DNA of 64,000 nucleotides from Escherichia coli (GCF_044647545.1 NZ_CP172818.1); one strand, 5' to 3'; counted from the stretch's first letter, positions 17,085 to 46,970 are shown. A program made the numbers and translations. The notes: a model not told the origin generated them from the sequence alone.

Positions 17085-17108
17085 ACACATTTGCCAATGG
17101 AGCACAAT

Positions 17109-17196
17109 GCCTGATGCGACGCTAGCGCGTCTTATCAGGCCTACAAACCAGCTCTTTAACGCGTAGGGCGGATAAAGCATTTACGCCGCATCCGCC
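17109..17196. repeat. pair of REP sequences in opposite orientation (BIME-like) between convergent ypeC and mntH
   Basis: gcctgatgcgacgctagcgcgtcttatcaggcctac at 17109-17144 and an inverted REP-like copy (ggcggataaagcatttacgccgcatccgcc) at about 17167-17196. Confidence 0.6.
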
Positions 17197-41532: not shown

Positions 41533-41955
<423 letters not shown>

Positions 41956-41957
41956 TC

Positions 41958-42869
41958 TTAAATCCCCGCCCCCTGGCTAAAATGCTCTTCCCCAAACACC
42001 CCGGTAGAAAGGTAGCGATCGCCACGATCGCAGATGATCGCCACCACCACCGCGCCAGGGTTAGCTTTTGCCACTCGCAGTGCACCAGCAACCGCGCCGC
42101 CGGAGCTAACGCCACAGAATATTCCTTCCCGCACTGCCAGTTCGCGCATGGTGTTTTCCGCTTCTCGCTGATGAATATCCAGCACCTCATCCACCAGCGA
42201 AGCGTTGAAAATCCCCGGCAGATATTCCGCAGGCCAGCGGCGAATGCCGGGAATGCTGCTGCCCTCTTCCGGCTGTAAGCCGACAATGGTCACCGGTTTG
42301 AATTGTTCGCGCATAAAGCGCGACACGCCGGTAATGGTGCCGGTTGTTCCCATGCTGGAGACAAAATGGGTAATGCGCCCGCCGGTTTGCTGCCAGATTT
42401 CCGGCCCGGTGGTGGTGTAATGGGCGTAAGGGTTATCGGGATTATTGAACTGATCGAGCAGCTTTCCTTCACCACGATTAGCCATCTCCAGCGCCAGATC
42501 GCGCGCACCTTCCATGCCCTGCTCTTTGGTGACCAGAATCAGTTCCGCACCGTAGGCACGCATTGCCGCACGGCGTTCCTGGCTCATGTTGTCGGGCATC
42601 AGCAATTTCATGCGATAGCCTTTAAGCGCGGCAATCATCGCCAGCGCAATGCCGGTGTTACCACTGGTGGCTTCGATCAACACATCACCCGGTTTAATCT
42701 CGCCGCGCTTTTCCGCCTCGACAATCATCGAAAGCGCTGCACGGTCTTTTACCGATCCCGCCGGGTTATTACCTTCCAGTTTCAACCAGACTTCACTGCC
42801 GTTATTCGGCCCCATTCGCTGCAACTTCACCAGAGGCGTATTGCCAATTGTTTGTTCTAATGTACTCAC
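41958..42869 (-). CDS. cysM: cysteine synthase B (O-acetylserine sulfhydrylase B)
   Basis: GTG start at 42867-42869 gives 303 aa (M)STLEQTIGNTPLVKLQRMGP...; the ORF-track frame extends 26 codons further upstream. Confidence 0.92.
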   Translation of the reverse strand: MSTLEQTIGNTPLVKLQRMGPNNGSEVWLKLEGNNPAGSVKDRAALSMIVEAEKRGEIKPGDVLIEATSGNTGIALAMIAALKGYRMKLLMPDNMSQERRAAMRAYGAELILVTKEQGMEGARDLALEMANRGEGKLLDQFNNPDNPYAHYTTTGPEIWQQTGGRITHFVSSMGTTGTITGVSRFMREQFKPVTIVGLQPEEGSSIPGIRRWPAEYLPGIFNASLVDEVLDIHQREAENTMRELAVREGIFCGVSSGGAVAGALRVAKANPGAVVVAIICDRGDRYLSTGVFGEEHFSQGAGI

Positions 42870-42892
42870 GATCTCTGTCCATACGTGGTGTT

Positions 42893-42928
42893 GCCTGATG
42901 CGACGCTTGCGCGTCTTATCAGGCCTAC
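42893..42928. repeat. REP element between cysA and cysM
   Basis: gcctgatgcgacgcttgcgcgtcttatcaggcctac, near-identical to the REP copy at 17109-17144. Confidence 0.65.
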
Positions 42929-42945
42929 AGGTTACAAACCTTGCC

Positions 42946-42981
42946 ATTAAAAAGCCCGGATCGCGGGAAGCGCCTCCGGGC
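42946..42981 (-). terminator. putative intrinsic terminator just 3' of cysA, upstream of cysM
   Basis: Minus-strand hairpin gcccgga(gg)cgcttcccgcga-tccgggc (42954-42981) followed by TTTTTAATGG (complement of 42944-42953). Confidence 0.5.
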
Positions 42982-43002
42982 GTTTAACATTCACTCAACC
43001 TA

Positions 43003-44100
43003 TCAGGCGCTTTGTGCGAGAGCAAGTTCCTCATCGCGGGTTTCAATACGCTCGTCGCCGTTATACAGCCGCGCATGTTGCAGGCCGACGAACAGACGAT
43101 CGCCGCGCACTGGCGCATCATCCCCGCGCATCACCACCGTCAAGGGTTCGTCATACCATCCCAGCGGCTGCACCACTAATTGGGTGTAGTGACCTTTCGG
43201 GCTGGCTTCCAGTACCTGTACGGGTAGCGGCGAATCGAGGCTGGTACGGCGGCTGATATCCACTTCCCACGGACGCAGGAAGAGATCCACCGGCCCCTGA
43301 TACGCAGGTGTATAGCCCAGCGGCCAGCGATGTGCGCCAACATGGAACTGCCCGCCGCGAATGGTTCCCTGCAGGCGGTTCACTTCGCCCATAAATTCGA
43401 GTACAAAACGGGTCGCTGGTTCGCGCCATACCTGGTCCGGTGCATCAGCCTGCTCGATATTGCCCTGGCTCATCACCACTACACGATCGGCTACTTCGGT
43501 CGCTTCTTCCTGGTCATGGGTCACAAACACGCTGGTGAATTTCAGCTCTTCATGTAACTGACGCAGCCGGCGACGCAACTCTTTACGCACCTGCGCATCC
43601 AGCGCGCCAAACGGTTCATCAAGCAGCAGAATTTGCGGTTCTACGGCAAGCGCGCGCGCCAGCGCCACACGCTGTTTCTGGCCGCCGGAAAGCTGCGCAG
43701 GATAGCGGTCTGCCAGATGGGCAAGCTGCACCATCTCCAGCAATTTTGTCACTTTCGCTTTGATAGCTGCGGCATTCGGGCGCTCGCGACGCGGCAGCAC
43801 CGTCAGGCCGAAAGCGATATTGTCGAACACCGTCATATGGCGGAACAGCGCGTAATGCTGAAACACGAAACCGACTTTACGATCGCGCGCATGCAGGCGG
43901 CTAACGTCGGTGCCGTGGAAGCGAATATGCCCGCTGGTTTGATGCTCCAGCCCGGCGATAATGCGCAGCAGCGTGGTTTTCCCGGAACCGGACGGCCCCA
44001 GCAATGCGACCATCTGACCAGAAGGAATATCCAGTGAGATATCGTTCAGCACCTGGGTGCGACCAAAAGACTTCTTAATATTGGCAATCTCAATGCTCAT
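43003..44100 (-). CDS. cysA: sulfate/thiosulfate ABC transporter ATP-binding subunit
   Basis: 365 aa; Walker [10 protein letters not shown]; ABC signature LSGGQKQR; Walker B LLLDEP. Confidence 0.95.
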
Positions 44101-44965
44101 GATGTTCCTCCTGCTGCGCGCGTTTTTCCTGATTCTCCAGACGCCACTGCAACATACTCTTTAAAAACAGGGTGATAATCGCCATCAGCGTCAACAACGC
44201 GGCAGCGGTAAAGGAGCCGACGGTGTTGTAGTCCTGCTCCAGCAATTCAATCTGTAACGGCAGCGAAAGTGTTTCGCCGCGAATCGAGCCGGAAACTACC
44301 GACACCGCACCAAACTCGCCAATCGCGCGGGCGTTGGTCAGCACCACGCCATAAAGCAGCGCCCAGCGGATGTTCGGCAGCGTGACGCGACGGAACATCT
44401 GCCAGCCGGACGCGCCAAGCAAAATCGCCGCCTCGTCTTCCTGGCTGCCCTGACTTAACATTACCGGTACCAGTTCGCGCACCACAAACGGACACGTCAC
44501 GAAGATGGTGACCAGTACCATACCCGGCCAGGAGAACATAATTTGCAGATTATGTTCATCCAGCCAGCCACCGAGCGGGCCGTTAGAGCCGTAAAACAGC
44601 AGATACACCAGACCGGCAACCACCGGCGACACGGCAAACGGAATGTCCAGCAGCGTCAGCAGCAACTGGCGTCCGGGGAAGTTAAAGCGCGTCACCAGCC
44701 AGGCCAGCAGAATGCCGAACACCAGGTTCACCGGCACGGCAATCAGCGCAATCATCACCGTCAGCCAGATGGCGTGCAGCATGTCCGGATCGGCCAGATT
44801 CTGTAAAACCGGCATCAGCCCTTTGCTGAACGCCTGCACGAAGATGTAAATCATCGGCACCAGCAGGATGAACGCCGAAACCAGCATCCCGATGCCAATC
44901 AGAAACCATTTGTCCCAGTTAATCGGGCGCGCGTCATAACGCTTCAATTGTGTCACTTCCGCCAT
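44090..44965 (-). CDS. cysW: sulfate/thiosulfate ABC transporter permease
   Basis: 291 aa permease; start overlaps the cysA end. Confidence 0.93.
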
Positions 44966-45798
44966 TAATGACCTACCACACGCCGACCAAAGCGACTTTG
45001 CAGAGTGTTAATTGAGAACAGCAGCAACAGGGATGCCGCGAGGATCACCGAAGCAATCGCGCTCGCCGCCGGGTAATCAAACTCCTGTAAGCGAACAAAA
45101 ATCATCAGCGACGTCACTTCCGTCTTCCAGGCAATGTTCCCGGCGATGAAAATCACCGCGCCAAATTCACCAAGACTACGGGTAAACGACAGCGCCACGC
45201 CCGCCACCAGCGCCGGAGAAAGCTCCGGCAGCACCACTTTGCAGAAACTCTGCCAGCGCGTTGCGCCGAGCGTTTCTGCCGCTTCTTCATATTCCGGGCC
45301 TAACTCTTCCAGCACCGGCTGCACGGTACGCACCACAAACGGAATACTGGTAAAAGCCATCGCCACCGCAATCCCCAGCCAGGTATAGGTAACTTTGATA
45401 TCAAACTTCGCCAGCCATTCACCGTAAAAACCGTTTACAGAAAAGAGCGAGGCCAGCGTTAAACCGGCCACTGCCGTTGGCAGCGCAAAGGGTAAATCCA
45501 TCAGCGCATCGATCAGCGTGCGGCCCGGAAAGCGATAGCGGGTTAAGATCCACGCCATCAGCAGGCCGAAAACGCCGTTAAAAATCGATGCCACAAACGC
45601 CGACAGCAGCGTCACTTTGTAGGCCGCGACCACCTGCGGGTTGGTGATCACCTCCCAGTACTGTGCCCAGCTCATCTCAGAGAGCTGCATCACCAGCGCT
45701 GAGAGCGGCAGCAGCAAAATCAGGCACACAAACAGCAGACTGGTGCCGAGGCTTAAGGTAAAGCCCGGCAGCACGCGTCTTGATGAAACTGCAAACAT
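44965..45798 (-). CDS. cysU: sulfate/thiosulfate ABC transporter permease
   Basis: 277 aa permease; 1-nt overlaps with both neighbours (translational coupling). Confidence 0.93.
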   Translation of the reverse strand: MFAVSSRRVLPGFTLSLGTSLLFVCLILLLPLSALVMQLSEMSWAQYWEVITNPQVVAAYKVTLLSAFVASIFNGVFGLLMAWILTRYRFPGRTLIDALMDLPFALPTAVAGLTLASLFSVNGFYGEWLAKFDIKVTYTWLGIAVAMAFTSIPFVVRTVQPVLEELGPEYEEAAETLGATRWQSFCKVVLPELSPALVAGVALSFTRSLGEFGAVIFIAGNIAWKTEVTSLMIFVRLQEFDYPAASAIASVILAASLLLLFSINTLQSRFGRRVVGH

Positions 45799-46814
45799 TA
45801 ATTACGCCCCGCCGCTAACAGCTTGTCTAACTCGCCGCCGCTGGTGAAGTGGGTTTTCATCACTTCCGGCCAGGAGCCAAATTTGTCTTCCACGCGGAAC
45901 AGCTCGGTCTGCGGGAATTTGTTTTTCAGTTTGTCCATGACTTCCGGGTTATTTACGCGGTAGTAATAGTCGGTGATGATGGTCTGCGCCTGCGGGCTGT
46001 AGAGCCAGTTCAGGTAGGCTTTTGCTGCTTTTTCCGTACCGTTGGCCTGCACGTTTTTATCGACCCACGCCACCGGGAATTCCGCAAGAATGTTAGTTTT
46101 CGGAATAACTACTTCGAAGCCCTGCGCTTCATACTGTTTACGGATGTTGTTCACTTCCGATTCGAAGCTAATCAGTACATCGCCCAGCCCACGTTCGGCA
46201 AAAGTGGTGGTCGCGCCACGACCGCCAGTATCGAACACTTCAACGTTTTTCAGGAACTGAGTCATAAACTGTTCAGTTTTGGCTTTGTCGCCACCGTCGG
46301 CTTTGTCCGCTGCGCCCCATGCCGCAAGGTAGGTGTAACGCGCGTTACCTGACGTTTTCGGGTTCGGGAAAATCAGCTTCACGTCGGAGCGCACGAGGTC
46401 GTTCCAGTCGTGAATATTCTTCGGGTTGCCCTTACGCACCAGGAAGCCCATGGTGGAGTAGAACGGCGAGCTATTATTCGGCAGGCGCGACTGCCAGTCG
46501 GCCGGGATAAGCTTGCCTTTGTCATGCAGGATTTGTACGTCGGTCACCTGGTTATAAGTGACAACGTCTGCTTTTAAGCCCTGCAAAATCGCCAGCGCCT
46601 GTTTTGATGACCCGGCATGAGATTGTTTTATCGTCAGTTTGTCGCCGCCGTTATCTTTTGCCCATTGTTGCTCAAACGGCGGATTCAGGGCGGCAAACAG
46701 CTCGCGGGAGACATCATAAGAACTGTTCAGCAGTTCCGTTGCCTGTACATGGCCCGCCAGCAGCAGAGAAGCGACCAGCGCGAGTGAGTTCTTTTTCAGT
46801 AAGTTAACGGCCAT
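45798..46814 (-). CDS. cysP: thiosulfate-binding periplasmic protein
   Basis: 338 aa; signal peptide [25 protein letters not shown]. Confidence 0.93.
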
Positions 46815-46970
46815 TGCGCACCCTTATAAATTTAACGACTTTCTAATAGCCATCATATTTATAACGGACGTGAAAGGAGTAACGGTTTTATATACCGTTT
46901 GGTGATTTGGAAGTTGAAAAGGGAAAAGACGAAATCCTCCCCACAAATGCAGGGAGGAAACAGAGGTGAA

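Follow-up and report, generated by a model that had tools for sequence, protein, structure and literature searches.

A hairpin and U-tract between cysA and cysM as a probable leaky intrinsic terminator inside the cysPUWAM operon of Escherichia coli

Introduction

Databases and most papers describe cysPUWAM of Escherichia coli as a simple five-gene operon, and EcoCyc lists it as one operon. The membership of its last gene is disputed, since cysPUWAM is given as one unit by Stead et al., whereas cysPUWA and cysM are listed separately by Tseng et al. The cysM gene has been reported to be co-induced with the CysB regulon, and in an APEC lsrR mutant the expression of cysUWA was about 9-fold up while cysM was unchanged. 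Both the listing of Tseng et al. and the lsrR data are hints in the literature that cysM can be uncoupled from the genes upstream of it. The locus thus raises the question of whether the DNA between cysA and cysM holds a signal that sets the last gene apart from the transporter genes. The initial annotation of the window, i.e. the whole stretch of 64,000 nucleotides from E. coli (NZ_CP172818.1) analysed here, had noticed a REP sequence and a terminator-like hairpin in this spacer and proposed that they could adjust the expression of cysM relative to the transporter by partial termination or 3' end stabilisation.

Results

The gene coordinates were taken from the RefSeq record NZ_CP033850.1 (strain FDAARGOS_497), which is 100% identical to the window over the region tested; window positions correspond to those of NC_000913.3 minus 2496714. 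The cysA gene (43003-44100, minus strand; RefSeq annotation of NZ_CP033850.1, Pfam ABC_tran) encodes the ATP-binding subunit of the sulfate/thiosulfate ABC transporter, and cysM (41958-42869, minus strand; RefSeq annotation) encodes cysteine synthase B. The sequence of cysA ends with the tandem in-frame stop codons TGA-TAG (43000-43005, minus strand), and a TGA followed by TAG or TAA is present at 73 of 75 related Enterobacteriaceae loci; the second stop may serve as a back-up that keeps ribosomes off the downstream hairpin. The ribosome-binding region of cysM, as read from the sequence (42867-42880, minus strand), comprises a weak Shine-Dalgarno-like stretch, GGACAGAG, and the GTG start codon (42869-42867), which matches the RefSeq annotation and is the start at 67 of 77 related loci. 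At its other end, the stop codon of cysM lies 2 bp from that of the convergent yfeK (41955-41960); yfeS and an inverted REP pair (BIME), which are located 3' of cysM in K-12, are both missing from the window strain. No intrinsic terminator was found 3' of cysM in the window strain or in K-12, so that in the window strain read-through transcripts run antisense into yfeK, and the hairpin between cysA and cysM is the only intrinsic-type stop signal that these checks found in the cysPUWAM unit.

The 133-bp spacer (42870-43002) contains both elements named in the initial annotation, with the REP at 42893-42928 and, 3' of cysA on the coding strand, the GC-rich hairpin with its T-tract. On the transcript the hairpin (42981-42954, minus strand) reads GCCCGGA-GG-CGC-UUCCC-GCG-A-UCCGGGC and is directly followed by UUUUUAAU (42953-42946), which consists of UUUUU at 42953-42949 and a subsequent AAU. 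It is composed of a 7-bp basal stem (GCCCGGA/UCCGGGC, six G-C pairs), an internal loop, a 3-bp apical stem and a 5-nt loop, and its predicted fold of -18.9 kcal/mol (z = -3.3) is equalled in stability by only 1 of 200 shuffled sequences. The transcribed strand accordingly carries the GC-rich stem-loop and, immediately 3' of the stem, the U-tract that characterise intrinsic terminators. The hairpin starts 21 nt past the TGA of cysA, a distance that is about 19-22 nt in the short spacers of related species and that places it clear of the terminating ribosome. The 3' end of a terminated transcript is expected at about 42949-42951, equivalent to about 2539663-2539665 (minus strand) of K-12 NC_000913.3. 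Weak points of the structure are the internal loop, the effective 14-nt distal part and a U-tract of five U only. A simple consensus promoter/terminator scanner missed the hairpin on account of its loop limit of 3-8 nt and the internal loop in the stem. A bidirectional terminator was rejected, as the plus-strand version of the hairpin runs into GUUUAACAUU.

A ViennaRNA-based scan of both strands of the window (128 kb) for a single hairpin of -14 kcal/mol or less directly in front of a T-tract returned five sites, the most stable of which is the one between cysA and cysM. Two others are the terminators of alaC and gltX, immediately after their stop codons, and their recovery indicates that the scan criterion finds real terminators. 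In 25 Markov-simulated windows the mean number of sites was 1.4, and five of the 25 contained a site of this stability anywhere in 128 kb; the chance of meeting such a site in this 133-nt spacer and on this strand is, according to the simulation, roughly 2e-4. Apart from these sites, a 10-bp hairpin with a T-rich tail is located at 46935-46958 (minus strand) directly after the stop codon of ucpA. It is probably the ucpA terminator, insulating the cysP promoter region from upstream transcription; a role as an attenuator in the cysP leader (46958-46935) was discarded because of this position.

Our scan for CysM in species-representative genomes yielded 80 Enterobacteriaceae loci, 77 of which have cysA directly upstream of cysM, and a hairpin abutting a T-rich tail next to cysM is present at 79 of the 80. 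The spacers fall into length classes of 63-71 bp and 80-134 bp, plus a small number of longer spacers (159 bp, about 200-207 bp). What lies between the cysA stop and the start of cysM in the short class is about 20 nt, one hairpin, the T-tract and a short Shine-Dalgarno region; one example is the 69-bp spacer of Citrobacter sp. Cu233, which ends in ...ATCGCCCGGAGGCGCATTCCGCGATCCGGGCTTTTTTATGGACAGTGCTC-GTG. At least five T within the first 6 nt past the stem are found for 71 of the 76 extracted hairpins, and the distance from the end of the stem to the start of cysM is 17-27 nt in 72 of the 76, the four exceptions (84-110 nt) being Escherichia-type loci. The tail is weakened in some species, e.g. 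to AAUUUUGUU in Salmonella arizonae, and the sole locus without the 5' arm of the terminator, that of C. amalonaticus AUH_CA_2023_1 (L035, ~2380-2500), has kept the T-tract. Within E. coli, the 102-bp segment with the hairpin (42929-43030) occurs in 5425 of 5426 genomes with at least 95% identity and is at least 99% identical in 4759 of 5427 records; in the variants that were inspected the stem is always intact, and one has UUUUC in place of UUUUU. The combination of hairpin, T-tract and ribosome-binding site forms a module that travels with cysM, even where cysA has been replaced.

Several loci show unusual arrangements. At two of them, from two species (L039; L065, ~2250-2500), a GH78 alpha-L-rhamnosidase gene replaces cysA directly upstream of cysM; it ends with the same TGATAG, and the spacer with its hairpin and T-tract is the same as well. 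The cysM gene of Enterobacter sp. ENT03 (L052) has a divergent yfeK in front of it, with a remnant of the cysA end and the hairpin retained. The C. amalonaticus locus has a cysA gene ending with TAA, and two inverted REP-like units (BIME-like) fill its spacer. In E. coli AST205 (L084, NZ_AP043614.1) the T-tract is followed without a gap by an inserted IS200C element (at about window position 42948), which parts cysM from cysA.

The comparison with K-12 MG1655 bears on the constraint on the spacer. Third codon positions across cysU, cysW, cysA and cysM differ at 13.7%, whereas the K-12 spacer, which is also 133 bp long, shows 2 substitutions in 133 bases (P = 7e-7 at the third-position rate). 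Outside the REP only 1 of 97 bases differs (P = 1e-5), which is about tenfold less divergence than at third positions. The product of cysM has accumulated 5 amino-acid changes against 44 third-position changes, a ratio that is indicative of purifying selection on a functional gene. The stretch from cysM to cysU (41958-45798) is unusually diverged for E. coli, with third positions 12-16% off K-12, and a 701-bp query is at least 99% identical in 87 of 5433 records and 90-95% identical in 5028. The cys operon of the window strain resembles a divergent allele that recombination may have brought in, within which the spacer stayed nearly identical.

Taken together, we consider the hairpin and U-tract (42981-42946, minus strand) to be a genuine but leaky Rho-independent terminator inside cysPUWAM, with a probability of roughly 0.6. 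In the curated Term-seq lists that Adams et al. 2021 give for LB and M63, there is no 3' end at 25396xx and no entry for cysA or cysM; this absence is weak evidence, because the lists are thresholded and assign a score of no more than 974 even to the terminator of cysK, a highly expressed gene. Neither gene is mentioned in the supplements of SMRT-Cappable-seq and TERMITe, and no 3'-end or expression-ratio data showing termination or differential expression between cysA and cysM were found in the literature searched. The partial termination proposed by the initial annotation has gained strong indirect support from the conservation at 79 of 80 loci despite the turnover of the sequence and from the lack of promoter space described below, and has found no counterpart in published 3'-end or ratio data. 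With respect to other termination events in the region, Adams et al. 2021 place a very strong Rho-termination region at 8 nt inside cysP (K-12 2543521, minus strand; about window position 46807; Rho score 17.2, p = 5.6e-46), which suggests that under their conditions Rho terminates transcription of the cys operon prematurely, right at its head. They also list a Rho-termination region antisense to yfeS, downstream of cysM.

The same structure might act after transcription only. The hairpin would then block 3'-to-5' exonucleases following an endonucleolytic cleavage of the full-length cysPUWAM mRNA and stabilise the cysPUWA part, as does the REP of malE-malF. The stability of the hairpin, the REP-family hairpins at the same position in many genera and the lack of a mapped 3' end with a terminator signature in the lists of Adams et al. 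2021 and the SMRT-Cappable-seq supplement all agree with such a barrier, and protective structures are common in E. coli operons (Dar & Sorek 2018). The latter are, however, characteristically devoid of a U-tract, whereas here a T-tract abuts the stem (at least five T in six positions, 71 of 76) and has been kept through complete replacement of the stem. Moreover, the table of differentially decaying gene pairs in Dar & Sorek 2018 does not include cysA-cysM, but pairs with a terminator-type Term-seq site were left out of this table by design. The appearance of cysPUWAM in their Table S2 was discarded as evidence against a terminator, since S2 is the EcoCyc operon list and the filtering was performed per gene pair. 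We regard a purely post-transcriptional role as unlikely, but the functions of exonuclease barrier and terminator are compatible and not mutually exclusive.

The stem itself has been exchanged repeatedly. Among the 76 hairpins, 32 are of the REP type with a GTAG tail (GTAGGCCGGGTAAGCG.AGCGCCACCCGGC) and 13 are REP-like with a degenerate tail; 15, including those of Escherichia, belong to a GCCCGG/GGCCGGG type without tail, and 16 have an unrelated GCGGCC-loop-GGCCGC stem (Buttiauxella, Cedecea, Siccibacter, Atlantibacter and others). When 45 distinct GCCNGG-type hairpins were aligned, pairing in the outer helix amounted to 99.6%, and one compensatory pair is C-G in 30, G-C in 15 and broken in none of them; the observed pairing score is not attained by any shuffle or slid register. 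Since many of these hairpins belong to the REP family, conservation could also be mimicked by REPs that inserted repeatedly at the site. The Klebsiella/Enterobacter-type hairpin recurs in identical form at two unrelated loci, on viral contigs, and neither of these copies is followed by a T-tract. This hairpin is consequently a dispersed REP, and the T-tract belongs to the cysA-cysM locus and not to the repeat. The REP units at the site always have their GTAG tail pointing away from the T-tract.

The single REP unit of the E. coli spacer (42893-42928; plus-strand letters GCCTGATGCGACGCTTGCGCGTCTTATCAGGCCTAC, transcript letters GUAGGCCUGAUAAGACGCGCAAGCGUCGCAUCAGGC) is 36 nt long, ends with CCTAC on the plus strand and folds with -23 kcal/mol (z = -5.5). 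It thus has the make-up of a REP palindrome, an imperfect palindrome of about 35 nt with GTAG/CTAC at one end, and we take it to be of the 'Z2' subtype. A search of the window with the core motif and blastn-short revealed a second copy at 17108-17145 (97% over 38 nt) between the convergent genes ypeC and mntH, and a 131-bp query containing the REP has 6 matches in the median E. coli genome, as is typical of a dispersed extragenic repeat. The sequences on either side of the 80 loci are almost entirely coding, and counts of REP-like motifs in them were uninformative for this reason. The spacer comparison delimits a 65-nt segment (42879-42943, minus strand) that carries the REP, is bounded by ATGG on both sides and lies after the T-tract and before the ribosome-binding site of cysM. 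It is missing from the short, ancestral-type spacers, e.g. that of Citrobacter sp. Cu233, and is present in E. coli, where 5414 of 5426 complete genomes have it at full length, and in E. albertii. The single REP sets the site apart from a BIME, which comprises at least two alternating REPs; inverted REP pairs of the BIME-like kind occupy the same spacer in Enterobacter and Klebsiella. The spacer of a genome labelled Pseudocitrobacter faecalis DSM 27453 (L006, 1407-1565) contains two REPs, with the unit homologous to that of E. coli inverted, whereas the remaining spacer and the hairpin hardly differ from those of E. coli and CysM shares 97% identity. Either REP turnover at this site is rapid, or the species label or the origin of the gene deserves a check.

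The distribution among species thus points to two elements of different age, namely an ancestral hairpin with U-tract, and a mobile repeat that was inserted separately and later, in Escherichia-type loci only. The initial annotation had treated both as a single regulatory signal, a view that does not survive this comparison, and a regulatory role of the REP found no support. Due to its position downstream of the U-tract, terminated transcripts do not contain the REP. It is probably a passenger, or else a minor stabiliser, and at most it adds a secondary stem-loop to the 5' leader of cysM in the read-through RNA. A function as antiterminator was dismissed, because the REP is transcribed after the termination decision.

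These observations bear on the view that the site has no regulatory function and is a hot spot for REP palindromes, where the T-rich stretch acts as an A/U-rich translation enhancer for cysM and its adjacency to the hairpin is incidental. REP-type or REP-like sequences account for 45 of the 76 terminal hairpins, and the number and orientation of REPs vary, from one in E. coli to two with an inverted unit in L006 and inverted pairs in Enterobacter and Klebsiella. The IS200C insertion right after the T-tract of E. coli AST205 fits a hot spot as well, and the GTG start and weak Shine-Dalgarno sequence of cysM make a U-rich enhancer upstream of it plausible. On the other hand, 16 loci have a non-REP GCGGCC hairpin at the same position, abutting the T-tract, and every REP unit is oriented with its GTAG tail away from the T-tract. 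In E. coli the T-tract, which the 65-nt insertion has moved to a distance of 84 nt from cysM, remained attached to the hairpin and is conserved throughout the species, and the divergence of the non-REP part of the spacer is about one tenth of that at third codon positions. We therefore rate an incidental adjacency as improbable.

The leakiness of the proposed terminator follows from the position of cysM. The gap of 17-27 nt between stem and cysM in most species leaves no room for a promoter, and our consensus scanner detected no sigma-70-like site on the minus strand between 40000 and 48000; transcripts of cysM must accordingly start upstream and pass through the hairpin. Given a functional cysM that is reached by reading through the hairpin, the terminator, if it terminates at all, must be leaky. 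It is very improbable that the hairpin is instead the efficient end of a cysPUWA operon with cysM as an independent unit, for although Tseng et al. separate the two, the APEC lsrR mutant had raised levels of cysUWA but not of cysM, and the cysM of Enterobacter sp. ENT03, with a divergent yfeK in place of cysA, must have its own promoter, so that this arrangement may apply to such rearranged species, the short gap cannot hold a promoter plus leader, the sigma-70-like site is lacking, a promoter inside cysA would still require read-through of the hairpin, and cysM is co-induced with the CysB regulon and is part of one operon in EcoCyc.

Discussion

The establishment of a leaky terminator as the preferred reading leads to a simple scheme for the expression of cysM. 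RNA polymerase starting from the cysP promoter would complete cysA and then transcribe the hairpin, 21 nt past the stop codon and outside the footprint of the terminating ribosome. A fraction of the polymerases would be released at the U-tract, giving rise to a cysPUWA mRNA whose 3' end is structured and resists exonucleases, and the remaining ones would read through and provide the only transcript from which CysM can be translated. The weak Shine-Dalgarno sequence and the GTG start would lower the output of cysM further. We infer from this scheme that termination occurs in vivo with partial efficiency and affects the ratio of CysM to the transporter; the net effect would be a CysM level at a fixed lower ratio to the transporter that is still under CysB control.

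A more far-reaching version of the leaky terminator would make read-through conditional, depending on elongation factors, an RNA-binding protein at the U-tract or the growth state, and thus uncouple the thiosulfate-specific CysM from the transporter; a related idea is that REP palindromes have repeatedly been recruited as the stem of an attenuator. Both are hinted at by the lsrR data, the module travelling with cysM and the turnover of the stem beside an invariant T-tract, and we regard them as quite doubtful.

If the leaky terminator is real, it would explain how the minor cysteine synthase is kept below the level of the transporter and yet remains CysB-controlled, and it could explain the disagreement in the literature over the operon membership of cysM. 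It would be of practical relevance for cysteine- or methionine-producing strains in which a strong promoter is placed before cysPUWAM in the expectation that cysM will follow. The locus also offers a natural example of a putative terminator whose stem has repeatedly been replaced by REP-family palindromes while the U-tract remained fixed. It thereby provides a specific and testable prediction for an operon of a model organism, and presents REP palindromes as interchangeable stems of a conserved candidate terminator.

Partial terminators or attenuators within operons of E. coli are known from the rplL-rpoB spacer of rplKAJL-rpoBC and from T1 in rpsU-dnaG-rpoD. The site between cysA and cysM shares with them a GC-rich hairpin plus U-tract between cistrons of one unit and, as predicted, a distal gene that is expressed by read-through only and at a fixed lower ratio. 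It differs from both in the internal loop of its stem and in the REP-family palindromes that constitute this stem in many genera.

The REP/BIME of malE-malF is said to stabilise the upstream mRNA. Like malE-malF, the cysA-cysM spacer is part of an ABC-transporter operon and contains a REP, and the upstream segment is expected to be more abundant than the distal gene. The stabiliser model for malE-malF is summarised in PMC5927463. Unlike there, the REP of cysA-cysM is single, is located downstream of a terminator-like hairpin and absent from terminated transcripts, and is restricted to Escherichia-type loci, and the gene pair is not in the published list of differential decay.

Certain REP subfamilies have reportedly been implicated in termination, and BIMEs are said to be associated with attenuation. 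A parallel is provided by Klebsiella, Enterobacter, Kluyvera, Raoultella and others, where a dispersed REP type itself provides the hairpin abutting the T-tract. In E. coli, by contrast, the terminator stem is not an E. coli REP type, and the true REP is separated from the U-tract. Attenuation by BIMEs is reported to be Rho-dependent and needs paired REPs, whereas the cysA-cysM site has a single one. REPs close to stop codons reportedly stall ribosomes and reduce the expression of the upstream gene. The REP of cysA-cysM is likewise located downstream of a stop codon within an operon, but while stalling REPs lie within about 15 nt of the stop, this one is 74 nt past the TGA of cysA, which sets it apart from them. 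Finally, the REP matches model positions 44-76 of 77 of naRNA4/REP325 (Rfam RF02564) with 37.9 bits (E = 3.5e-4), below the gathering threshold of 59.5 and with one REP unit only; naRNA4 is built from REP units, and the match reflects the shared repeat and not a naRNA4 gene. The cysA-cysM site adds a new case to two kinds of element that are already known, and it involves no new principle.
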